From: Cenarchaeum sp.
GTDB lineage: Archaea; Thermoproteota; Nitrososphaeria; Nitrososphaerales; Nitrosopumilaceae
DNA length: 64,000 nt
Reading direction: 5' to 3'
NCBI GenBank assembly: GCA_963693095.2
Contig: OY843768.1
Coordinates: 1,856,001-1,920,000, forward strand
Part shown: piece by piece, positions 14,283 to 63,401 of the stretch
Position numbering within the stretch: position 1 is the stretch's first letter
How the letters are laid out: every line of letters begins with the position of its first letter
Made by a program: the position numbers and the translations under genes
Notes under the pieces: generated by a model
What the model was told of the DNA's origin: nothing
What the model saw: only the letters and a program-made list of their open reading frames with translations
Database searches by the model: none

Positions 14283-14402
14283 TGTGCTGCGGGCAGACGC
14301 CGCAGGCGTTTTAAGCCTTTGGCGCCCACGCGTCGCAGACACGCAAGGCGATCCCATGCCACAGATAGCTATTTAGCAAACTCGAAAGCACGCCAACTCG
14401 CA

Positions 14403-17400
14403 ATGAGGCACGCCGCCGCAGCACTCCTCGCCGTACTCGCCGGAATGGGCGCGGCGTATGCGTTCACCGGCGACACGGTGAGCCTGCCGCAGGAGCGGCC
14501 TGACGTGCAAGCGCTGCTCACGTCTGGCATAATCGAGACCGGAGAGATTCGCGAAGACCTCGCAACGAGATATCTCGTCTTCGGCGAGGGCTCGCGCGGG
14601 TTCTCGACTGTACTTGGCTACTCGGAGATTCCGAGAGCTGCCGCACTGGGGCACCGGATAGCTCCTGACATGCGAACCGAGCTGCACAACAAGACGGCAA
14701 CTGACGTGTCTAGGATTGGTGAGCTCTCCGGCACGCTGCACGTGCGCGAGGAGCACGGACTCGACGGGACTGGCGTGCGCGTTGCCATAGTCGACACGGG
14801 AGTAGACTTTTCAAATCCTGACTTGCGCCATGCCCTCGCGCGAGACCCCGTGACAAACCATCCCGTAATGCTCGATGCTGACGCGCAGGGGATCGTCCTG
14901 ACAAACTCTACGTTCGTCGCGCGAATTGGCGATGACGGGACAATATCCGAGTACGGTTCCGTGCTGCCCGAGTGGGCAACGTCATCAGTCAGGGTCGAGC
15001 CCACGGGCGTGTACCTTGACATCGAGCGCGGGGGCAGCGGGACCAGGGTCGCCGTGTACAACTCGTTCTTTCCAGAGGCCGGACCGGGCACCGGACCAAT
15101 ATTCAACGCGACGATGGATGATGACATGAGGATCGGCCATGGCCCGGACGACTATATCGTCTCAAAGAGCGGCGTCTACCGCCTGGGCGTGATATACCAG
15201 GGGTCCCTCGAGGGCGCGCTAGTCGGCCTGCAAGTCGTCCCAGTCCTCGTGACTGACGCAGTAAAGGCCGGCGTGTATGACACGATAATCCCCGACCTCT
15301 CGACGTCGTGGCTCGACTATACGCGCTCCTCGCTGCCCGCCGGCATGATGCCCGACTATGACTTTGACTTTACCGACGAGGTTCCCGTCGTGCTCGGCTC
15401 GGGCAACGAGACGCTCGTGTACGACTCTGATGATGACGGCCTGGGCGACTATAGCGTCGGGACGATCGGCGCGCACGTGCTCGACGTGTATGGCGCGCTG
15501 CGCGGCAACGCGACAGGCGAGCCGGCCACGGGTCCGGACCTGCGAATGCTCCCGCCGATGGACCCTGGAGGGGAGTTTTTTGGCATAATGGCCGACTCGG
15601 TCGGCCACGGCACGTCTAGTGCCGCAACAGTCGCCGCAGCCGGCACGATCGAGTACGACATTTACAACTCTACATCAAGGCACACGATCACTGGTGCGGC
15701 CCCCGGCGCGTCGATAGTGCCGATAAAGGCCCTCTGGTACGGTGACACGCCGCACGCGTGGATGTGGGCCGCAGGCATGGACCTGCGCGATGACGGGACG
15801 TGGAGGTACACGGGCTCGCCACGGGCCGACATTGTCTCAAACAGCTGGGGCGCGCCGCAGTTTCCGGCCACGGGCGAGGCGCCGGGCCTTGACACAGTCT
15901 CGCTTCTCCTCTCGTACCTCTCGATGCCGGGATCCCTCAGGCCAGACTATCCCGGCGTGCTCTTTGTGGCTAGTGCCGGAAACTCTGGCCACGGGTATGG
16001 CACGATGAGCGCGCCGGGCGCAGCCCCATTCGCGCTGACTGCCGGCGCGACGACGAACAGCGCGTTCATCGGATATGGGAACTTTGAGGGCGAGCCGCGC
16101 TTTGGCAACTCGACGGCCTCGCACGGCCACCTCGTGGACTTTAGCAGCCGCGGACCGACGACTATCGGCGATCCAAAGCCGGACATGCTCTCAACAGGGG
16201 CATACTCTTTTGTGCCGGCTAGCGTCCTGCGCGCCCCGCGAGATGACGGCCCGCACGAGCCGTTCTCGCTCTTTGGCGGGACCAGCATGGCGGCCCCAAT
16301 GGTCTCCGGCGCTGCTGCAGTCACACTCGAGGCACTTCGCACGCAGGACGGGTATGGGCCTGTCAGCCCGCACAGGCTAAAGTCGATACTGGTATCGACT
16401 GCGGCTGACACGGGAAACGACGCGCTGGCGCAGGGCGCAGGCCTGGCCAACGCGACTGGCGCCGTCTCGTTTGCGCGCGGTGAGGCCGGCTCGTTTCTAG
16501 TCACAAACGACGCGACGCACGGCAACGTGCTAGACGCGATGCGTGAGCCGCTGGGCCTCCTCAACGCGACGGCCCTCGGACTGCGCGAGATTCGCATGCC
16601 CGAGGGGACACACGCGCACACGTCGTGGTATGGCGGCAGGGTCATGGCAGGCGAGTCGATGACTGCGACATTTACGATCGAAAACCCGTCTGATGAGCCG
16701 CTCGACGTCTCCGTCAGGCCAGAGTCGACATCACTATTGTCATCCTCGACGTATGCGGGAGTCACCACGCCGCACGAGGTCGACCCAGAGCTAAACGACT
16801 ATGGCGTGTTTGCGCCAAACTATGTCCCCCTCTCCGGCGTTGCGGCCCATGACACGCTAGAGTCGTACTTTGATGAGGCCTCGATACCGCCCGAGTCAAG
16901 CCTCCTGGTCCTGAGCGCAAGCTTTGGCCTCGGCGAGTTTATGAACATGACTCTAAACGAGGAGGCATACGCGTCAGACATCCGCCTCTCCTCGCTGTAC
17001 CTGTATGACTGGGTCGACTCGGACAACAGCACGCGCCCCGAGTCCTCCGAGCTCGCCCTCGTCTCGCGGGCCGGCTCTTGGGGAACGGTCCAGGAGCTGC
17101 GCGTCTCCGAGCCGGCCGCGCAGTTTGAGGGCACGCCGCTCGTCGGGATTTACCCACTGCCGACGCGCTATTCGTACTGGACGGGTGACACGGGGACAAA
17201 CTCTACGTCGATGGAGTACGCGCTGACGGCATCCTATTATGCGCCATCGCGCTGGGACGCAGTCTGGCTTGAGACTGACGAGCTCGTCGTGCCGCCAAAC
17301 TCAAAGGCCCGCCTCCGCGCCACAGTAGTTGTGCCCGAGTCCGCCGAGCCCGGCGTGCATCAGGGGTTCTTGCGCTTTGAGGGCGACTCGCAGGTGACGC

Positions 17401-17918
17401 TAGTGCCCGTGTCGTATGCCGTAAAGGTGCCCGTGGGGGAGCGCACGGTTCCCGTCGAGCGCGTGGCATCGACTACGCCGCGCTCGCCGGGGGAGATTCG
17501 CGGCGCCTTTGACATGGTCAGCACGTACATGGCCGGAGACTGGAGCCAGCACCACTTTGACGTGGATGACCCATCGGCAAGCTCTGCAGTCATCGACGTG
17601 TCATGGGAGGATCCGCAGACTAGCGTCACGGCATTCGTCGTCGAGCCGGGCGGCTCGATAGCCGCATCAAGCGCGCCGCCCGGCGCGTTTGGCGGGATAC
17701 TCGGGTGGCCGTCCTCGGACTGGCTCGGCCCCACGGAGTTCAGCCAGGGCGGCGGGTTTTTCCCCGTGACTGGGCGCAACTCTACATCGACGCTGTTCGT
17801 CGCGCCGGTCAACGCGACTGGCACGTATGGCATCATGGTACACGCCACAGTCTTTGGGGCCGGCGAGCGCGGAGACGCGCTAGCCGAGCCGATATCAGTC
17901 GGCGTGCAGGTTCGCTAG
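14403..17918 (+). CDS. secreted S8 subtilisin-family serine protease
   Basis: Catalytic 'IVDTG', 'HGTSSA', 'GTSMAAP'; oxyanion 'SAGNSG'. Confidence 0.95.
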   Translation: MRHAAAALLAVLAGMGAAYAFTGDTVSLPQERPDVQALLTSGIIETGEIREDLATRYLVFGEGSRGFSTVLGYSEIPRAAALGHRIAPDMRTELHNKTATDVSRIGELSGTLHVREEHGLDGTGVRVAIVDTGVDFSNPDLRHALARDPVTNHPVMLDADAQGIVLTNSTFVARIGDDGTISEYGSVLPEWATSSVRVEPTGVYLDIERGGSGTRVAVYNSFFPEAGPGTGPIFNATMDDDMRIGHGPDDYIVSKSGVYRLGVIYQGSLEGALVGLQVVPVLVTDAVKAGVYDTIIPDLSTSWLDYTRSSLPAGMMPDYDFDFTDEVPVVLGSGNETLVYDSDDDGLGDYSVGTIGAHVLDVYGALRGNATGEPATGPDLRMLPPMDPGGEFFGIMADSVGHGTSSAATVAAAGTIEYDIYNSTSRHTITGAAPGASIVPIKALWYGDTPHAWMWAAGMDLRDDGTWRYTGSPRADIVSNSWGAPQFPATGEAPGLDTVSLLLSYLSMPGSLRPDYPGVLFVASAGNSGHGYGTMSAPGAAPFALTAGATTNSAFIGYGNFEGEPRFGNSTASHGHLVDFSSRGPTTIGDPKPDMLSTGAYSFVPASVLRAPRDDGPHEPFSLFGGTSMAAPMVSGAAAVTLEALRTQDGYGPVSPHRLKSILVSTAADTGNDALAQGAGLANATGAVSFARGEAGSFLVTNDATHGNVLDAMREPLGLLNATALGLREIRMPEGTHAHTSWYGGRVMAGESMTATFTIENPSDEPLDVSVRPESTSLLSSSTYAGVTTPHEVDPELNDYGVFAPNYVPLSGVAAHDTLESYFDEASIPPESSLLVLSASFGLGEFMNMTLNEEAYASDIRLSSLYLYDWVDSDNSTRPESSELALVSRAGSWGTVQELRVSEPAAQFEGTPLVGIYPLPTRYSYWTGDTGTNSTSMEYALTASYYAPSRWDAVWLETDELVVPPNSKARLRATVVVPESAEPGVHQGFLRFEGDSQVTLVPVSYAVKVPVGERTVPVERVASTTPRSPGEIRGAFDMVSTYMAGDWSQHHFDVDDPSASSAVIDVSWEDPQTSVTAFVVEPGGSIAASSAPPGAFGGILGWPSSDWLGPTEFSQGGGFFPVTGRNSTSTLFVAPVNATGTYGIMVHATVFGAGERGDALAEPISVGVQVR

Positions 17919-32030: not shown

Positions 32031-33019
32031 TGCGCTGCCTCGGAATCGAGAGCACCGCCCACACGTTCTCGTGCGCGATATTGGAGACGCGCGGGAGGCG
32101 CGGGCGCGTTCTTGCCGACGTGCGGCGCGCGTACAGGCCGCCAGACGGCGAGGGGATACACCCGCGCGAGGCCTCGCGACACCATGTCGAAAAGAGCTCC
32201 ACATGCCTGCGCGAGTGCCTCGAAGAGTCGGGCATGTCGATGCGCGACGTTGACGCAATCGCGTATGCGGCCGGTCCGGGCCTTGGGCCCTGCCTCCGAG
32301 TCGGCGCCGTAGTCGCGCGCGCGCTCTCCTCATACCACAAGATCCCGCTATATCCGGTCCACCACGCGATCGGACATATCGAGCTCGGCAAGATGCTCAC
32401 GCGCACAGGCGACCCCCTCGTCCTACTCGTCTCAGGCGGCCACACGATGATACTCGCATACAGCGCGCCGCACTGGCGCGTCTTCGGCGAGACACTCGAC
32501 ATTACGCTGGGCCAGCTCTTTGACCAGTTTGGCCGCTCCTTGGGCCTGGCCTCGCCATGCGGCCAGGAGATCGAGCGCATCGCGGCGTGGGGTGAGGAGT
32601 ATTGCGACCTACCATACACGGTAAAGGGAAACGACGTCTCGTTCTCGGGGATATGCTCAGCAGCAAAGGAGGCCGTCGCCTCGGGCATTGAGCGCAAGTC
32701 AGTCTGCCACTCGCTGCAAGAGACTGCGTTTGCGATGGTGTGTGAGGCCACCGAGCGCGCACTAGTCCTGACGAAAAAGCGCGAGCTCTTGATAGTCGGC
32801 GGCGTTGCGGCCAATGCGCGACTCTCGCTGATGCTCGATGAGATGTCTAGGAACCACGGATGCCGCGTGGCCGCAGCCCCCATGCGCTATGCGGGCGACT
32901 GTGGATCGCAGATTGCGTGGGCCGGAATGCTAGAGGCCACAGTCTCACAACCGGTAAGGCCCGAGGAGGCCAGCGTTCGCCAGTCCTGGCGCCTAGACGA
33001 GGTTCCAATATCATACTGA
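32030..33019 (+). CDS. kae1: KEOPS t6A threonylcarbamoyltransferase
   Basis: 'GIESTAHT', 'GPGLGPCL', 'HHAIGHIE', 'VSGGHT', 'GETLD'. Confidence 0.95.
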   Translation: MRCLGIESTAHTFSCAILETRGRRGRVLADVRRAYRPPDGEGIHPREASRHHVEKSSTCLRECLEESGMSMRDVDAIAYAAGPGLGPCLRVGAVVARALSSYHKIPLYPVHHAIGHIELGKMLTRTGDPLVLLVSGGHTMILAYSAPHWRVFGETLDITLGQLFDQFGRSLGLASPCGQEIERIAAWGEEYCDLPYTVKGNDVSFSGICSAAKEAVASGIERKSVCHSLQETAFAMVCEATERALVLTKKRELLIVGGVAANARLSLMLDEMSRNHGCRVAAAPMRYAGDCGSQIAWAGMLEATVSQPVRPEEASVRQSWRLDEVPISY

Positions 33020-38740: not shown

Positions 38741-39065
38741 GCAGGATCCTCACACTCTGCACCAGCCACCTCTGGTTTTGGGCGACTGCTAGTCGTTTTT
38801 GCCAAGAGATCAAAAACACTAGCTACACCATGGGAAACATGACATTGGGGGACTTGATGGTCGCTCCGGCACGCGCACTGAATCATTGTTGATTCAAGTG
38901 GGGGAGGGGGGCTGACCCTGGTGTCCGGGTGACTATGATCGGATCGCCGGTTGAAAATGCCGCGTGTACCTGGCACGAGATACTGTCCTGCGTTTGTCCC
39001 CAACTGATGACGGCTCACTCGCCTGACGCGGCCAAAACGACTAGTGTGCGCTAATCATGTGCCTA

Positions 39066-40165
39066 TACTGACGAGCAAAAGTTCGTGCCATGATCAAACT
39101 TTCCCGACCCGCATGCTATATGGATCGCCCCTCCCCACGCCCCGCATGGAAGGCCAAGAGCTGGAAGCGTTCCGCAGGGCACTCCGCGACGAGAGGGACG
39201 CCGACGTCAGGTACAGGTTTGCCGCGGTCAACATGCACGAGAACCGGGGGATGACGCGCGAGGAGGTCGCACTTGCGCTCATGCAGTGCCCCAGGTGGGT
39301 CGGCAAGTGGGTCGCGCGCTACCGGAGTGGCGGTGTCGAGGCCCTGCGGGACCGCCCCCGCCCCGGCAGGCCGCCGCTGGTCGCGCGGCAGAGGCTTGGC
39401 CGCCTGATTGGCCGAATGCCCGGGCGCGTCACGCCCGCAGAGGTCATGCTGGAGATCGAGCTGGCCACCGGCGTGAGGTTCCACATGTCGTACGTCAGGA
39501 AAATAATGCGCAGGGCCGGCCTCTCCGCCAAGCGGACGCGCCTGGTGCACGTGAACAGGGCCGACGGGCCGACTGTAGCCAGCTGGCAGCGCAGGGTGCG
39601 GCGCAAGATAAGGCGCCTCAGGCGCGCCGGATTCACCGTCGTGGTGCAGGACGAGACCATCGCCGTGCACGGCGCCGCCGGCGGATCAAAGTACTGGTCG
39701 CTCGTGGGCGTCCCCGTCGTCGCCCCGTACACCGGGGGCCACAGGAGGGTCGTGGTGTACGGCGCGATCTCCACTGACGGGAAGCAGATCTTCCGGGTGC
39801 GCGACAGGTTCGATGCGGAGACGTTTGTCGCGTTCCTGCGCGACATGCGCAGGAGGTTCGGCAGGGTCGCCGTGATCGTCGACAGGGCGCCGCAGCACAG
39901 GGCCGCGGCGGTGAGGGACTATCTTCGCGCCCACAGGGCGGTGAGGCTGATCGAGCTGCCCACCGGCTCGCCGTACCTCAACGCGATCGAGGAGGTGTGG
40001 CGGCAGGCAAAGCGGGCGCTGCTGGTCTCCGAGCACTACCCCACCATGGGGGAGATGCGGACGGCGGTGTCACGGCACTTCAGGCACACGAGGTACCGGC
40101 TCGACGTGATGGCATACCTGGGCCGGACGTCGCTGGAATGCGGCACGGACTTTTGATCGGCAGTA
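39066..40165 (+). mobile_element. IS630-family element, copy 1 (1100 bp; transposase 39113..40156)
   Basis: TIRs TACTGACGAGCAAAAGTTCGTGCC / TACTGCCGATCAAAAGTCCGTGCC; TA duplication; DDE 'QDE..DRAPQH..SPYLNAIE'. Confidence 0.97.
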
Positions 40166-41863: not shown

Positions 41864-42985
41864 ATGACAAACGACGGGCGCGCCGTGTGTGCAGACCGCT
41901 ATTCCTATGCGGATCAGACATCGCTGAGCAGGGCAGTCAACCTGCTCCTTGATCACTGTGACTGCCATCGCGAGGCGCAGTTCAGCGACGCAATCCCCCC
42001 AACATGCCCGCAGCACCCACACTCGAGGAGATTCCTAGTCGATAGCGTGCCGTGCTGCGCGTTTGAGCCCTGCTCTACAGTTGAGCTCAGCCCACATGGC
42101 AAGATCACGTATTCGAGCGAAGAGTCTGCCCGCCGGGCCGGTGACCGGGATCAGGCAATGCTCCAGCTTGACTGGCACCTCATAGAGTCCTCTGACGTGC
42201 CGCAGCTTGCCGACACGCGCGCCATGGATCCGGACGGCAATGCGCCGTCTGCCCCGCTTGCCGCCGGATTTAGGATGCGGCGGACATGTCTTGACACGCA
42301 AGAATGTGCCGAATTCCGGGTTCCCTTGCCCAACGGCCGGACAGTCACGTGCGATCAGGCATCTGAGAAAATATCGCGCATGCCGCACTTTGAGCTTACA
42401 GTCAAGAGGCCTGACTTTGTGCGTCACGGCGATTGTGCCTTTTACCATGACATGGCTGAGAGCATATGGTGGCGCGAAGATGCCATGTGCATTGAGCAGC
42501 TGATGGCACTAGACGGCCAGGAGACGTTTGGCTGCCACTGGGACTCTACGCTAGCCGACCTCGAACTCTTTATTGCCAGGCTAAACCGCTCACGTCCGCC
42601 TGGGTTAAAGCTAGACACGGTATTTGTAAACTATGGCCTGTATATTTTGCTCTTTGGACGTGATCCTCAAACACTCGACTGGCCTGAAGAGTTCCCCGAA
42701 TACCGGAACATGGTGCGCCTGAACGGCATCACGTTCCTGCACTCCTCCTCGCTGCCCCTTGACTTCTCATTTGCCACGTCGTCTGCCCAGGGTCCGGTGT
42801 TTGTCCACGGCCCGTCCATACTGCGCTGTACGGACTCTGAGATCAAAGTCGAACGCTATTGTCATCTTGTTGCCCCGCCCCCTGGCATGCCAAGTGTTCC
42901 ATGGGGTGTCAGATTTAACGTGACGATGGAGTGGACAACAAGCAAACGGCAGTCTGTAAAGGAAAGCGTGGATGTTACACTATAA
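41864..42985 (+). CDS. hypothetical protein; Cys/His-rich N-terminus plus possible HK97/encapsulin-fold C-terminus
   Basis: 'MAESIWWREDAMCIEQL', 'DTVFVNYGLY..L', 'LNGITFLHSSSLP' follow the HK97 motif order; the fold call is tentative. Confidence 0.5.
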   Translation: MTNDGRAVCADRYSYADQTSLSRAVNLLLDHCDCHREAQFSDAIPPTCPQHPHSRRFLVDSVPCCAFEPCSTVELSPHGKITYSSEESARRAGDRDQAMLQLDWHLIESSDVPQLADTRAMDPDGNAPSAPLAAGFRMRRTCLDTQECAEFRVPLPNGRTVTCDQASEKISRMPHFELTVKRPDFVRHGDCAFYHDMAESIWWREDAMCIEQLMALDGQETFGCHWDSTLADLELFIARLNRSRPPGLKLDTVFVNYGLYILLFGRDPQTLDWPEEFPEYRNMVRLNGITFLHSSSLPLDFSFATSSAQGPVFVHGPSILRCTDSEIKVERYCHLVAPPPGMPSVPWGVRFNVTMEWTTSKRQSVKESVDVTL

Positions 42986-43081: not shown

Positions 43082-44181
43082 TACTGACGAGCAAAAGTTC
43101 GTGCCATGATCAAACTTTCCCGACCCGCATGCTATATGGATCGCCCCTCCCCACGCCCCGCATGGAAGGCCAAGAGCTGGAAGCGTTCCGCAGGGCACTC
43201 CGCGACGAGAGGGACGCCGACGTCAGGTACAGGTTTGCCGCGGTCAACATGCACGAGAACCGGGGGATGACGCGCGAGGAGGTCGCACTTGCGCTCATGC
43301 AGTGCCCCAGGTGGGTCGGCAAGTGGGTCGCGCGCTACCGGAGTGGCGGTGTCGAGGCCCTGCGGGACCGCCCCCGCCCCGGCAGGCCGCCGCTGGTCGC
43401 GCGGCAGAGGCTTGGCCGCCTGATTGGCCGAATGCCCGGGCGCGTCACGCCCGCAGAGGTCATGCTGGAGATCGAGCTGGCCACCGGCGTGAGGTTCCAC
43501 ATGTCGTACGTCAGGAAAATAATGCGCAGGGCCGGCCTCTCCGCCAAGCGGACGCGCCTGGTGCACGTGAACAGGGCCGACGGGCCGACTGTAGCCAGCT
43601 GGCAGCGCAGGGTGCGGCGCAAGATAAGGCGCCTCAGGCGCGCCGGATTCACCGTCGTGGTGCAGGACGAGACCATCGCCGTGCACGGCGCCGCCGGCGG
43701 ATCAAAGTACTGGTCGCTCGTGGGCGTCCCCGTCGTCGCCCCGTACACCGGGGGCCACAGGAGGGTCGTGGTGTACGGCGCGATCTCCACTGACGGGAAG
43801 CAGATCTTCCGGGTGCGCGACAGGTTCGATGCGGAGACGTTTGTCGCGTTCCTGCGCGACATGCGCAGGAGGTTCGGCAGGGTCGCCGTGATCGTCGACA
43901 GGGCGCCGCAGCACAGGGCCGCGGCGGTGAGGGACTATCTTCGCGCCCACAGGGCGGTGAGGCTGATCGAGCTGCCCACCGGCTCGCCGTACCTCAACGC
44001 GATCGAGGAGGTGTGGCGGCAGGCAAAGCGGGCGCTGCTGGTCTCCGAGCACTACCCCACCATGGGGGAGATGCGGACGGCGGTGTCACGGCACTTCAGG
44101 CACACGAGGTACCGGCTCGACGTGATGGCATACCTGGGCCGGACGTCGCTGGAATGCGGCACGGACTTTTGATCGGCAGTA
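43082..44181 (+). mobile_element. IS630-family element, copy 2 (transposase 43129..44172)
   Basis: Same TIRs, TA duplication; transposase identical to copy 1. Confidence 0.97.
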
Positions 44182-45250: not shown

Positions 45251-45931
45251 ATGCGCATAGGCGCCAAAATGGCCATGATCCTAGCGGCAGGCGTAGTCTT
45301 TGCCTCAATGCCGTTCCAGGAGGCCATTGCCCAGTCCGACGAGGCAGATGCCGGAGGCCGCATCGCAGAGGAGGTTCGACGGCTCGGAGACCAAGTGGAA
45401 AAAGCTAACAGGCATAGCGAATCGCTGTTTAAGCTGTCATTGTATATAGGCGCGGGGATTGCCCTAGTCGCCATAGCAGGAACAGCCATTAACACCATGT
45501 ACTTGCATCGCCACTTCAGCATATTAGAAAAAGACGCAAAAGAGAGGCTTCGTCCTGTGCTTGTCTGGACCGCGTTTGAGAAGAAAATTACAGACAAATA
45601 TAGAGGCATCCCAGGAGACAACATCGCAATCCAGATAGTCAACGCAGGCCATGTTGTTGCAATACGCATTACAAGCGTCACAAGGTATGGCATGGGAAGA
45701 GACTTTGAGTCAGGAAAGGCCAGGAATCAAACCTGCGATCTAGGAGCATTGCCGCCCAATGAGTTCATAGTGATACCCGTACGGATATCCCCAGAACAGA
45801 GAACAGAGATCCAGGAGAGTGAAGAGACATTTCGTGTCGAGATTGACCTAGAATACTATGATGTCGGAGACAAGAAATTCACAAACAAGATAGTTGGAGT
45901 CTATGACGGAAAAGGAATGAGGCTGAAGTGA
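45251..45931 (+). CDS. secreted/membrane hypothetical protein
   Basis: Signal peptide, coiled coil, TM, 'RPVL...I.NAG..VA' Ig-like C-terminus. Confidence 0.7.
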   Translation: MRIGAKMAMILAAGVVFASMPFQEAIAQSDEADAGGRIAEEVRRLGDQVEKANRHSESLFKLSLYIGAGIALVAIAGTAINTMYLHRHFSILEKDAKERLRPVLVWTAFEKKITDKYRGIPGDNIAIQIVNAGHVVAIRITSVTRYGMGRDFESGKARNQTCDLGALPPNEFIVIPVRISPEQRTEIQESEETFRVEIDLEYYDVGDKKFTNKIVGVYDGKGMRLK

Positions 45932-46420
45932 TGAGAACGCGAGGAAAGCACCAGTGGGGCAACAGAGGCAGGGCATGACAAAAAGCGGGCGTATGCAAAC
46001 AAAAAGGCAGAGCAAAGAAATGAGCGCAGGGGCAGGCCCATTCGTGGACAGTGCTGGATTACACCATGGCGTTTAATAAGATCCTGGCTACGCATTGCGC
46101 CGATGGCCAAGGGGGAGGATTTGAAGAGTGGAGACAACACACCAAAGGATGACAACAAACTAGAGGCACTCTATCGGCAATTTGACGCCTCAGACAATGT
46201 CATATACGACAAGGGCAAAAAGGACAAGTCAGACTGAACCCTGGCGAAGATAAAGGGCAGGACGAGCCCTTAATGACATGTTGCGAGAGGGCATATAGTC
46301 CCACAAATAGTCCATAGAGAGCATCTTTGTGAATACAAGCAACGAGCAGCGCCTGCTAGTCACACGCGGCGCCCACATTGCCATTCCCAATCACAATTAC
46401 AAACTATGCGTCAAAAAATG

Positions 46421-46982: not shown

Positions 46983-48082
46983 TACTGACGAGCAAAAGTT
47001 CGTGCCATGATCAAACTTTCCCGACCCGCATGCTATATGGATCGCCCCTCCCCACGCCCCGCATGGAAGGCCAAGAGCTGGAAGCGTTCCGCAGGGCACT
47101 CCGCGACGAGAGGGACGGCGACGTCAGGTACAGGTTTGCCGCGGTCAACATGCACGAGAACCTGGGTATGACGCGCGAGGAGGTCGCACTTGCGCTCATG
47201 CAGTGCCCCAGGTGGGTCGGCAAGTGGGTCGCGCGCTACCGGAGTGGCGGTGTCGAGGCCCTGCGGGACCGCCCCCGCCCCGGCAGGCCGCCGCTGGTCG
47301 CGCGGCAGAAGCTTGGCCGCCTGATTGGCCGAATGCCCGGGCGCGTCACGCCCGCAGAGGTCATGCTGGAGATCGAGCGGGCCGCCGGCGTGAGGTTCCA
47401 CATGTCGCACGTCAGGAAAATAATGCGCAGGGCCGGCCTCTCCGCCAAGCGGACGCGCCTGGTGCACGTGAACAGGGCCGACGGGCCGACGGTCGCCGGC
47501 TGGCAGCGCGTGGTGCGGCGCGAGATAGGGCGCCTCAGGCGCGCCGGATTCACCGTCGCCGTGCAGGACGAGACCATCGCCGTGCACGGCGCAGCCGACG
47601 GATCAAAGTACTGGTCGCGCGTGGGCGTCCCCGTCGTCGCCCCGTACACCGGGGGACACAGGAGGGTCGTGGTGTACGGCGCGATCTCCACTGACGGGAA
47701 GCAGATCTTCCGGGTGCACGACAGGTTCGATGCGGAGACGTTCGTCGCGTTCCTGCGCGACCTGCACGGGAAGTTCGGCAGGGTCGCCGTGATCGTCGAC
47801 AGGGCGCCGCAGCACAGGGCCGCGGCGGTGAAGGACTATCTTCGCGCCCACAGGGCGGTGAGGCTGATCGAGCTGCCCACCGGCTCGCCGTACCTCAGCG
47901 CGATCGATGGGGCGTGGCGGCAGGCAAAGCGGGCACTGCTGGTCTCCGAGCACTACCCCACCATGGTGGAGATGCGGACGGCGGTGTCACGGCACTTCAG
48001 GCACACGAGGTACCGGCTCGACGTGATGTCCTACCTGGGCCGGACGTCGCTGGAAGGCGGCACGGACTTTTGATCGGCAGTA
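46983..48082 (+). mobile_element. IS630-family element, copy 3 (diverged; transposase 47030..48073)
   Basis: Same TIRs and TA duplication; third catalytic motif reads 'LSAID' instead of 'LNAIE'. Confidence 0.96.
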
Positions 48083-61314: not shown

Positions 61315-61791
61315 TTAGACTGGGCTTTTGGGAGCTTTTGTGTCGGGGAATTTCTGCTTGAACTTTTCAGCCTGTGTCTCATAACGCTTTGGAATAACAA
61401 AGAAATGTTGGAACAATTCGTTCAACATCTCAAGCATCCATTCGGCCTCGCCAGGCTCGACATTTACAATAAGGCCGGTGTGCAGATCACGTTCTCCATG
61501 GGCGCCACGATTCCCCGCCATTCTAATTTTGCCGACTCCCTCGTGAAGGTGAGCAGGAAGCTCTTTTGACTCTAACAGTTTTTTAATGTCGTCAGACAGC
61601 CGCTCTTTCTTGATCGAAAGACAATGGCGAATGAGCGTCTGCAGGCATCGTCGAGCCAATGCGGCACTAGCATTGGGGCTAATCGGCAACACCTCCATGG
61701 CCTCTATATAGTCTGCCATGATCTCCTCGGGCACATATTTAACAGCATGCACTGCCTTACGGTATGAGGTCAGCACCTGGACCGCACGCAT
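61315..61791 (-). CDS. DUF4145 (HEPN-like) protein, 5' end replaced by an IS66 terminus
   Basis: 'DY.EA..V...SP.ASA.LARRCLQ...IR..GN.GAH'. Confidence 0.8.
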   Translation of the reverse strand: MRAVQVLTSYRKAVHAVKYVPEEIMADYIEAMEVLPISPNASAALARRCLQTLIRHCLSIKKERLSDDIKKLLESKELPAHLHEGVGKIRMAGNRGAHGERDLHTGLIVNVEPGEAEWMLEMLNELFQHFFVIPKRYETQAEKFKQKFPDTKAPKSPV

Positions 61792-62022
61792 GACCCTTGG
61801 CCACCACGCCCTTCTCCATGCCCCCCCACGTCAGGAGGCACGTCAGGAGGATCGACATGCGCCTGGCCGCCGCCGCGCCGCCCTTGAGCCGGGCCGCTCA
61901 CCCTGCGGCGCACGACCACGTCGCGCAGCTCCCTCTCTGCGGCGTTGTTTGTGGGCGCGACGCCGGCGTGCTCGAAGGCGAACAGCCGCGGCAGGGCGCG
62001 GCAGAGCCTGGCCGACGCGCGC
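61761..62022 (-). mobile_element. IS66-family remnant: transposase C-terminus plus right end
   Basis: Minus strand translates 'LFAFEHAGVAPTNNAAERELRDVVVRRRVSG'; TIR GGTATGAGGTCAGCAC at 61761-61776. Confidence 0.82.
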
Positions 62023-62023
62023 C

Positions 62024-62959
62024 CTACCCCTCCACGATGACCCTTGCAGACCTCTTTGGGTCTATGGAGGCGCCCGCGCTAAACTGCGCGCCAATCCTGC
62101 ACACGTGCTCGGCCTGCTCCATGCGAACCTCCAGTCCGCTCAGTGCCACGCTGACTGAATCCCTTGCGGCCACTAGTGCGCTGCCCCCTCCAATGTCCAT
62201 GCCTCCCCAAAATGCGGGGCTCACCACGACGTCCATGCCATTGACGTCCATGCTGCCTGCTCGCAGGTCACCGCCCTCCAGGAGCTGAATGGCGTGCCTG
62301 GGCGTCATTACGCAAAACACCCCGCCCGGAAACTCGACGCCCACGCTATTGTCCACTATGGTCCGCGCAACTTCTAGCAGGTCATTGCCTCCCAGCATGT
62401 TCTTTCCGTCAACTGTGCGCGAATTCGCCTGGTTTTGAATGTACAGTGTGCGTGCAAGGGCCGAATCATTCGTATTGATCAGGCTGGTGTGGACTAGATT
62501 TTCCACGACTGCGATCACCCCGTCACGTATGGAGGCGAGCAGGTCGCGCGCCACGTTCTGGGGATTTCCTGCCATGTCATTCCGGCTCACCTGGTGCCAC
62601 ATTGACCAATGCCTGGGGGCGCCCGTCATTATCGTATAGCATGATCTCGCATCCTGTGGGCCACCCTGTAGCGCCTGTGCCGGGCGTGGGGCATCAGCCA
62701 CGATGCGCCTCCATGGCTCGCCAGGGCGCGGCCTTGCCACCCTTGCATAATCCAGCACGGAGCGGTGTGGCCTTGGCATTATGCGTGAAATGTCCAAATG
62801 CCAGACGCTGTCGCCTTTTGGCTGATGGTCAATCTCTCCCACAATGTCGCCGCCCCGCTGTTCTAGTTCTGGCCAGACAGGTTTACCGCTGCTAAACGCG
62901 TCAGTTATCACCTGGCAGGTATCATCCCACTCTTGATCCCTTGCGCCCCGCGTCTTCAT
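62024..62959 (-). CDS. putative HK97-fold major-capsid-like protein (orphan)
   Basis: 'SVLDYARV', spine-helix-like 'VSRNDMAGNPQNVARDLLASIRDGVIAVVE', 'CVMTPRHAIQLL', 'GMDVVVS', terminal 'IDPKRSARV'. Confidence 0.55.
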   Translation of the reverse strand: MKTRGARDQEWDDTCQVITDAFSSGKPVWPELEQRGGDIVGEIDHQPKGDSVWHLDISRIMPRPHRSVLDYARVARPRPGEPWRRIVADAPRPAQALQGGPQDARSCYTIMTGAPRHWSMWHQVSRNDMAGNPQNVARDLLASIRDGVIAVVENLVHTSLINTNDSALARTLYIQNQANSRTVDGKNMLGGNDLLEVARTIVDNSVGVEFPGGVFCVMTPRHAIQLLEGGDLRAGSMDVNGMDVVVSPAFWGGMDIGGGSALVAARDSVSVALSGLEVRMEQAEHVCRIGAQFSAGASIDPKRSARVIVEG

Positions 62960-63401
62960 TGTGGGGTTATGAGGGTGGCACGTATATGAATTGTTGCTGT
63001 GCCCTGGCCAATTGACAAAGAATACACCGACTCTTGTGAACATGTCCTATCGCCGCTAGTTGAGGAGAAACCACGTTCACGCTGCCCTGACTGTGGAGAG
63101 TCTTTTCGCTGGAATCATGCGACAGACCCCCGTTGTGACAAGCACATCCTTGGCCTCGTCCGTGAACTCATCTCCTGATCTTTGATCAACGTGTGGCCTG
63201 ACATGTCCTGCTGGCGACGGATCTGCTCGCAGTGACTGCGGGGAGGACCCCACAGGCGCCCCCGGAACTGCCCAGGGAACCCGGGCGCCAGACTCTTTTA
63301 ATGTGGCACCATACTGCGCCCTCGCCGATGAGCGCGATTATGCGTGCCTTGCAGGCAGGGCGCCATGGGCAGGATGCGCCATGCCGGGGGCCGACGTGGG
63401 C

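Follow-up and report, generated by a model that had tools for sequence, protein, structure and literature searches.

Reuse of HK97-fold capsid proteins by cells is already known from the encapsulins and from gene transfer agents (GTAs). Encapsulins (Family 1, Family 2, and the two-component Family 2B) are virus-free cellular HK97-fold proteins of ~300 amino acids (aa), with PF04454 being the family used for encapsulin Family 1 in a survey of this group (PMC8346489). The capsids of GTAs and of EcCI2, a capsid-forming satellite (capsid-forming phage-inducible chromosomal island, cf-PICI), are likewise encoded on non-viral or semi-autonomous chromosomal elements, and these elements keep portal, head-completion, and packaging genes beside the capsid gene. 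In a thaumarchaeal provirus, Nvie-Pro1, a fusion between a protease and the capsid protein has been reported (PMC6563490). Here we report the analysis of a capsid-like gene, whose product we call P0001 and whose family we call family A, in a 64,000-nucleotide stretch of the genome of a Cenarchaeum species (the window, C1:1856001-1920000 of the host genome, G000).

The evidence shows, or supports well, that P0001 is a virus-derived HK97-fold capsid protein that is encoded by an intact, stand-alone, and cassette-like gene within an island rich in defence genes, tetratricopeptide repeat (TPR) genes, and insertion sequences (IS). Family A fits neither of the known kinds of reuse and is set apart from them by the lack of a detected cargo operon, the lack of detected packaging genes, the movement of a single gene, and its setting among defence genes. 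P0001 looks like a capsid protein that the cell has co-opted for its own use.

Results

The capsid-like gene, its start, and its host

The gene and the elements upstream of it are as follows.

62024..62959, minus strand: P0001 (family A), HK97-fold capsid-like coding sequence (CDS), an intact open reading frame (ORF) of 311 aa, stop codon included
62960..63043, minus strand: in-frame upstream extension of 28 codons, with an ATG at 63043 that would give a protein of 339 aa; probably untranslated
62983..62990, minus strand: TATA-like box TTCATATA, read from the sequence, its centre ~27 nucleotides 5' of the ATG at 62959

The original prediction for this DNA, made from the letters alone, had described an intact 311-aa ORF with a TATA-like box of its own; both are present, the ORF on the minus strand, and the box is kept in the upstream stretch of the orthologue in a second genome, G058. 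Translation likely starts at 62959, since the alignment of family A begins at this inner methionine and since the extension diverges, with 6 of its 28 residues differing from those of the G058 orthologue, which is otherwise 90% identical. The box TTCATATA is a putative promoter, and its distance of ~27 nucleotides from the ATG is as expected of a leaderless archaeal mRNA.

The host genome comprises 2.0 Mb in two contigs with 60% G+C and is 99.55% complete. It encodes an archaeal 16S rRNA (1,457.6 bits) and an archaeal amoA (E 3e-117), and the host is therefore an ammonia-oxidising archaeon; a methanogen was considered and rejected, as mcrA was not found in the genome and archaeal amoA is present. 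High G+C content together with many TPR genes has also been described for sponge-associated Thaumarchaeota (PMC6697440).

P0001 has the HK97 fold and escapes sequence libraries

Sequence libraries gave no name to P0001, which matched no Pfam family at E<=1 and no PHROGs, NCBIfam, or PADLOC family. None of the 15 members of family A matched a capsid model of Pfam or NCBIfam, PF05065 (Phage_capsid) included, and no curated capsid sequence family, whether PF05065 and others in Pfam or the head families of PHROGs, scored above threshold for P0001. A search of the PDB with a hidden Markov model (HMM) profile returned no meaningful match, and a tblastn search with families A and B (the latter introduced below) against 50,697 phage records returned none. 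Family A is very small: among 1.84 billion representative proteins, searched exhaustively with an HMM, 22 relatives passed E<=1e-3, and 13 of these also passed E<=1e-30. The 14 full-length relatives are equal in length to P0001 and share 23-91% identity with it, and the resulting 15-row alignment has 10 invariant columns.

On this alignment, AlphaFold2 produced a model of P0001 with a predicted local distance difference test score (pLDDT) of 82.2 and a predicted TM-score (pTM) of 0.83; a model built on 3 sequences was unusable (pLDDT 41.9). Foldseek comparison of the former model with the PDB gave 375 matches at E<=1e-3, the best with E 8.9e-11 over 283 columns, and among the matches listed there were only tailed-virus capsids, a GTA particle, and encapsulins. 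Comparison with BFVD gave 273 matches at the same threshold, the best with E 2.2e-13, to capsids. Re-alignment with VIA yielded Z>=8 for 537 of 988 chains, and the best 50, with Z from 15.8 to 12.3 and a model range that mostly begins at 9-65 and runs to 311, are all capsids, GTA, or encapsulins. Representative VIA Z scores are listed below.

LME-1 phage capsid: Z 15.8
Capsid-forming satellite (cf-PICI) capsid: Z 15.3
GTA capsid: Z 14.7
Haloferax virus HFTV1: Z 14.1
HK97: Z 13.9
Encapsulins: Z 13.8

With AlphaFold2, Foldseek, and VIA in agreement, the HK97 fold is settled for the predicted structure, and a different fold, which the original prediction had named as a finding that would overturn it, was not what emerged. 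Such scores cannot separate a virus capsid from that of a satellite, a GTA, or an encapsulin. Structure-based search picks up capsid relatives that are invisible to every sequence library.

Family A is related to capsids of tailed viruses of the same archaeal order

A search of 201 genomes at the level of the host's order returned one informative weak match, a 709-aa protein encoded in the following region of genome G021.

Contig C27 of G021 (L033), 18,494 bp: head-tail module of a virus or provirus, from an archaeon of the host's order

In a profile-profile comparison with hhalign, family A matched this protein at a probability of 97.7% (E 2.4e-12) over 307 columns, family positions 8-315 being aligned with residues 365-708. 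The capsid part thus forms the C-terminal half of the G021 protein and follows an N-terminal part of ~360 aa. The protein itself matches the major head families of PHROGs (E 6.2e-10), and the surrounding module encodes a portal-like protein (a weak match, 6.7e-5), a tail terminator, a minor tail protein (2.1e-22), and a neck protein (1.3e-8); no terminase was seen within the 18,494 bp of the contig. No library gave a name to the N-terminal part, which by analogy with the fusion in Nvie-Pro1 may be a protease.

Because of this match to a protein within a head-tail module, family A is shown, at the level of sequence profiles, to descend from the major capsid proteins of tailed viruses infecting archaea of this order, or to have an ancestor in common with them. 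The model of P0001 has the N-terminal arm or helices, E-loop strands, P-domain spine helix, and A-domain of the HK97 fold and matches solved capsids over most of its length, and the sequence is homologous to a capsid protein encoded among virion genes; these two features define the structural class. It resembles the capsids of thaumarchaeal tailed viruses and proviruses in its fold, in profile homology over its full length, and in a host from one archaeal order. Whereas the G021 protein carries the extra N-terminal part of ~360 aa and is encoded between the portal-like and tail genes, P0001 consists of the 311-aa capsid core only and, unlike the G021 module, has no virion gene nearby or detected elsewhere in its genome.

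No virus was found around the gene or in the genome

A Pfam scan of 39 ORFs, covering the last 25 kb of the window and 20 kb beyond it, detected no virion, terminase, portal, protease, or integrase family; the families that it found were those of TPR proteins, IS630-like transposases, a DUF4145 protein, and OLD-type nucleases. Neither the 61 window ORFs scanned with Pfam nor those scanned with PHROGs, in the window and in the next 20 kb, matched a family of portals, terminases, prohead proteases, tail proteins, or integrases, and the first 33 kb of the window consist of ordinary core genes. The genome holds a second family A paralogue at another site (see below); among 30 ORFs around this copy and around a locus of the multi-copy families B and C (B-C-B', below), no terminase, portal, protease, or scaffold was found. 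Over ~20-25 kb on either side of either copy, no scanned neighbour matches a virion family, and 33 of the 34 unknown neighbours of the four family A loci in G000 and G058 had no PHROG match, the exception being the DUF4145 protein, which matches a DNA-binding family.

At the scale of the whole, 99.55% complete genome, no match to Phage_capsid, Terminase_6N, TerL_ATPase, or Phage_portal was obtained, while control genomes responded to these models. When the 18 other ORFs of the G021 contig were compared with the host genome (phmmer, E<=1e-3), there was no virion-related match, and the few matches were to unrelated genes, for example IS transposases. The G021 capsid protein finds P0001 in the same kind of search at E 4.7e-4 and is the sole G021 virion protein with a relative in the host genome. 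The terminase, portal, protease, or scaffold gene that would stand beside the capsid gene in a provirus or tailed-virus head module is thus missing among the neighbours scanned.

The view of P0001 as an orphan capsid gene without a virus is supported by these results: the absence of portal, terminase, protease, tail, and integrase genes, asserted by the original prediction for the window, extends to the ORFs scanned here with Pfam and PHROGs, and the head module that might have lain just outside the window appears neither in the next 20 kb nor genome-wide among the families searched. The neighbourhoods of homologues, which bear on the same prediction, were read at the four loci of G000 and G058, where no virion family was found among the ORFs scanned. 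A further possibility, that homologues are always viral and this copy is decaying, is set aside in part: the gene is intact, the tblastn search of phage records was null, and three family members (P0010, P0015, and P0006) were not found in viral contigs by a scan that catches near-identical sequence only and says little. By scans with the same reach, P0006 and P0015 were not found in metagenome contigs and P0028 was not found in genome contigs.

The second contig of the assembly, C2, was considered as a plasmid or virus and rejected, being a 95% variant copy of a chromosomal region. Its 27,705 bp are 95-97% identical to C1:1076604-1108349 and are therefore a second strain's version of that region within the assembly.

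Family A is patchily distributed and moves as a single gene

When 401 genomes were sampled from the host's taxonomic family, two contained family A, and a sample of 401 genomes from the phylum yielded the same two. At the order level, 6 of the 201 genomes match at E<=1e-3, strongly only in two genomes of one genus; three more genomes of that genus gave no match, but these are fragmented (72-91% complete). One family member is named by its source 'Thaumarchaeota archaeon S15', and S15 is a metagenome-assembled genome from a sponge (PMC6697440).

G000 and G058, both complete genomes, encode two family A paralogues each. The family tree has two types, of which G058 has one each and G000 has two proteins of type I. 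The second G000 copy (C1:156454-157392) is intact, is 42% identical to P0001, and is carried by a 2.1-kb indel flanked by ordinary genes; G058 lacks this indel at the matching site. A gene for a rhodanese/metallo-beta-lactamase upstream of this second paralogue raised the possibility of a sulfur-type encapsulin operon, which was rejected: the indel with the paralogue is absent in G058, and the rhodanese gene is 97% conserved.

P0001 and its G058 orthologue share a 1.4-kb block of 91.6% identity, compared with 98% over 8.4 kb of flanking core. Comparison of the two genomes shows the gene order of the island to be a mosaic of rearranged cassettes, and the neighbours of the orthologues differ. 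Given the 1.4-kb block, the differing neighbours, the lone 2.1-kb indel, and the patchy spread, P0001 behaves as a mobile single-gene cassette.

Conservation and selection

Comparison of P0001 with its G058 orthologue gave a ratio of non-synonymous to synonymous substitution rates (dN/dS) of 0.71, from 14.5 synonymous and 33.5 non-synonymous changes. This is the highest value of the 9 measurable pairs of the region, the others ranging from 0.23 to 0.52. Nearly half of the amino-acid changes (14 of 29) fall in residues 4-39, which form the N-terminal helices, and outside this segment there are 15 non-synonymous and 11 synonymous changes.

In contigs of four public runs, no indel is listed inside the CDS, the listed ones being at 61794-61891 and 63127, and two alleles co-occur in runs X1 and X2. 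As the gene is intact and free of listed CDS indels in the four runs, it is not visibly decaying. The conserved length, together with conserved residues along the whole protein, argues for a function, judging from the aligned relatives.

Predicted self-association

Prediction of P0001 in three copies gave a median score of 0.71 (0.78, 0.71, and 0.71 in separate runs) versus 0.01 for the best of three controls, with a partner pLDDT of at least 80 and with at least 87% of the contacts shared between runs. In the calibration of the tool, 20 of 30 proteins solved as one-chain pairs attained this mark, compared with 1 of 23 that were solved as single chains; the counts hold only roughly here because three copies and an alignment of our own were used. 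In the model, a surface formed by residues 64-66, 116-151, and 220-248 meets one formed by 75-109, 192-213, and 238-242. The copies are thus predicted to bind head-to-tail through surfaces of the P-domain, spine helix, and A-domain, as in a capsomer ring.

The island and the neighbours of P0001

The gene lies in an island that extends from about position 33,000 of the window to about C1:1,957,500 and contains many TPR genes, IS630 elements, and nucleases, in keeping with the TPR- and nuclease-rich island of the original prediction, to which the IS elements are now added. Its main features around P0001 and around the family B copy of the window are as follows.

61315..61791, minus strand: DUF4145 protein, 158 aa, PD-T7-4-like (PF13643, E 3.7e-13; PADLOC PD-T7-4, E 5e-16; phrog_1305 'DNA binding protein', E 4.5e-21)
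61762..62023, no strand assigned: IS-like 3'-end remnant, a ~265-bp repeat directly downstream of the P0001 stop codon
63303..63872, plus strand: ORF of 189 aa, divergent and upstream of P0001, from a three-copy family of the genome; no Pfam, PADLOC, or PHROGs match
39044..40156, plus strand: IS630-like transposase gene with DDE_3 and helix-turn-helix domains (Pfam); 17 copies in the genome
43129..44172: IS630-like twin, encoding a protein identical to that of 39044..40156
41864..42985, plus strand: family B copy, the second 'shell-like' gene of the original prediction, from a family of ~370 aa

The repeat downstream of P0001 is a remnant of an IS-like, multi-copy gene of 472 aa, of which it represents the 3' end. 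Elsewhere in the genome, BLAST detected 14 more copies, some full and some partial, at 68-89% identity, plus one 42-bp match. Nine of the other copies were examined, and four of them overlap an ORF of 472 or 523 aa, probably a transposase, at its 3' end. The segment 61762..62023 shows raised contig depth and loose ends in reads, and it is part of the 1.4-kb block in common with G058. Copies occur for example at C1:397612-397876 and 45799-46069, and tandem arrays with a period of ~1.2 kb lie at C1:780-786 kb and 1656-1659 kb. The DUF4145 neighbour is not kept beside the G058 orthologue.

Defence-type genes in or near the island comprise three OLD/GajA-like nucleases and the PD-T7-4-like protein, and in G058 AbiJ/PDC-S32-like and GmrSD/HEC-06-like proteins are encoded near the second paralogue. 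The first two OLD nucleases, which were scanned, match the Old, GajA, and AriA models. PADLOC-DB 2.0 assigned no family to P0001 or to families B, C, and D, and the matches among their neighbours were to Old/GajA/AriA, PD-T7-4, HEC-06, and PDC-S32.

Several further observations concern the same regions. The OLD-family paralogues (AAA_15 plus TOPRIM) lie within 25 kb of each other, at L003:5679-7724, L003:10667-12457, and C1:1946590-1948275, and two families, D (444 aa) and E (160 aa), recur beside them. The IS630 pair at 39044-40156 and 43129-44172 encloses the family B copy together with a TPR gene of 462 aa and looks like a composite transposon; a third IS630-like copy lies at 47030-48073. 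In G058, an ORF of 393 aa with CxxC pairs (L024:16667-17848), which had no library match, lies directly 3' of the second capsid paralogue and is followed by the GmrSD/HEC-06-like nuclease. Just before the island, at 14319-17918 of the window, a 1,199-aa subtilase (Peptidase_S8) protein is encoded among genes for copper proteins and cytochromes.

Families B and C

Family B has five matches in G000 and five in G058 and forms 16 clusters in the large database. A paralogue begins 1.6 kb upstream of P0001, just past the end of the window and in divergent orientation; another copy, also divergent and upstream, abuts the second capsid paralogue of G058, and a 54-aa remnant (E 1.2e-4) lies beside the G058 orthologue of P0001. 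Family B is thus found near family A at two clear loci and one weak locus of four.

Elsewhere, a family B gene is followed on one strand by a gene of family C (~339 aa), and at two loci a divergent B-like gene follows in turn (B-C-B').

C1:1324530-1327988 of G000 (L032:8530-11988): B-C locus
C1:1123052-1126525 of G058: B-C locus
C1:615459-617680 of G058: B-C locus
L003:593-2825: B-C locus

Family C may be HEPN-like, on the weak grounds of a Pfam match at E 0.007 and motifs recognised by eye. Family B had no PDB match and no library match, and hhalign gave it a probability of 0.3% of being related to family A. No profile likeness to any protein of the G021 module was seen for families B, C, and D. 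The sole hint of shell-likeness in family B came from a language-model look, which gave sub-threshold leads (0.86) to capsid clusters. The reading of 41864..42985 as shell-like, and hence of two shell genes in the island, is not established.

Discussion

P0001 shares with the encapsulins a cellular, virus-free setting, a length close to theirs, a VIA Z of 13.8 to the shells of M. xanthus and P. furiosus, and predicted self-association. Two paralogues per genome recall the two-component encapsulin shells (PMC11071501). It differs from encapsulins in that no encapsulin sequence family matches it, no conserved cargo gene was found beside it (targeting peptides were not searched for), and its spread is patchy and cassette-like. 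The term 'Thaumarchaeota' is absent from the main text of the encapsulin survey (PMC8346489). The cf-PICI EcCI2 and GTA capsids are among its best structural matches (Z 15.3 and 14.7), but the portal, head-completion, and packaging genes that accompany those capsids were not found around P0001. With the defence-island candidates of the PADLOC type it shares a location among OLD/GajA-like nucleases and a PD-T7-4-like protein that varies between close genomes, whereas no PADLOC model matches P0001 or families B, C, and D.

The original prediction had offered three roles as inferences, namely a nanocompartment, an antiviral decoy, and a host-interaction particle. We lean towards a role in virus conflict, in view of the defence-island setting and the fast evolution of the N-terminus, and the lack of a conserved neighbouring enzyme counts against a classical encapsulin. 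The function that we tentatively favour, as a real possibility that falls short of being probable, is interference with the assembly of related tailed viruses, because of where the gene lies, its uneven distribution, the rapid change of its N-terminus, and its kinship with viruses. The cell would keep the protein because it can still assemble; when a related tailed virus enters, P0001 would co-assemble with the viral capsid protein, or compete for the assembly partners of that protein, so that heads would come out malformed and the infection would fail. In this scenario, it would be the rapidly evolving N-terminal helices that follow the virus scaffold or the capsid interior. A more specific form of this idea, which we consider rather unlikely, is a single-gene antiviral weapon acting as a 'poison subunit', which would co-assemble with the capsid or capture the scaffold or portal, wreck the heads, and travel between genomes as a defence-island cassette, possibly with family B and the HEPN-like partner.

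Several points weigh against interference with virus assembly. The gene is known from DNA alone, a look-up of RNA runs that contain it having listed none, and its expression is presumed. No PADLOC model matches P0001, and a full-text literature search yielded no defence based on a capsid-protein decoy. To our knowledge, none of the defence systems described so far has a decoy or homologue of a capsid protein as its effector. Nearness to defence genes is an association only, in an island that is above all rich in TPR genes and IS, and the second G000 copy does not lie among defence genes. The dN/dS of 0.71, the measure by which the original prediction would have judged purifying selection, was computed from 48 substitutions and is as compatible with relaxed constraint as with an arms race. 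The self-binding score may merely mirror likeness to the many solved capsomers. Finally, the Z of the encapsulins (13.8) is within ~2 of that of the best capsid (15.8), and the fold alone is no pointer to a viral over a compartment role.

A shell protein of a new encapsulin-like nanocompartment, with its cargo encoded elsewhere or by an unknown neighbour such as family B, is an explanation that we hold unlikely on balance. It would account for a stand-alone HK97-fold gene in a cellular genome without a virus and for the predicted self-association, and the N-terminal helices of the model align with the N-terminal helix region of encapsulins (from model positions 16-27 onwards, VIA Z 13.8). The two paralogues in each of two complete genomes could form a two-component shell; two metagenomic pairs of members lie on contigs of equal size (23,670 and 17,706 bp) and, judging by size only, may share contigs; and family B lies upstream and divergent at two of four loci, with the weak 54-aa remnant at another. 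Yet none of the 15 members matched a Pfam or NCBIfam model, so that PF04454 and any encapsulin model are unmatched, NCBIfam being a library that we take to include such models. Moreover, no enzyme gene is common to the four loci, the neighbours differ even between orthologues of 90% identity, the spread is patchy and cassette-like rather than vertical, and the nearest relative in sequence is a virus capsid, not an encapsulin. If P0001 were instead a functionless leftover of a degraded provirus that has not yet broken, its viral ancestry, the IS-rich mosaic island with an IS remnant directly downstream, the highest dN/dS among the neighbours measured, and the empty listing of RNA runs would follow readily. 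We regard this as decidedly unlikely, as the gene is intact in two species and has about a dozen divergent relatives of equal length with invariant columns along the whole protein, both paralogues are intact at 42% identity, no other provirus remnant was found nearby, the four runs list no CDS indel, and changes outside residues 4-39 number 15 non-synonymous versus 11 synonymous.

The gene might also encode the capsid of an unrecognised mobile element or GTA-like particle system, whose other components, the multi-copy families B to E, would have diverged beyond the reach of the libraries. The capsid itself escapes all sequence libraries and its partners could do so too, these families occur in multiple copies and in fixed pairs such as B-C, and the cf-PICI and GTA capsids (Z 15.3 and 14.7) are among the top VIA rows. 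However, large terminases and portals are usually detectable, and none turned up in the genome with the three families searched; B, C, and D have no profile likeness to proteins of the G021 module; family C, if HEPN-like as its weak match (E 0.007) suggests, would point to defence or a toxin and not to a virion; the genes are arranged differently in the two genomes; and the second copy stands by itself in a 2.1-kb indel. We find this explanation very doubtful, the least probable of those considered. Interference with the assembly of related tailed viruses, tentative as it is, remains the function that we favour.

If P0001 and its relatives form shells, family A would be a new compartment family in ammonia-oxidising archaea, a group that matters for the marine nitrogen cycle; if they act by blocking the assembly of viruses, they would represent a type of defence not seen before.

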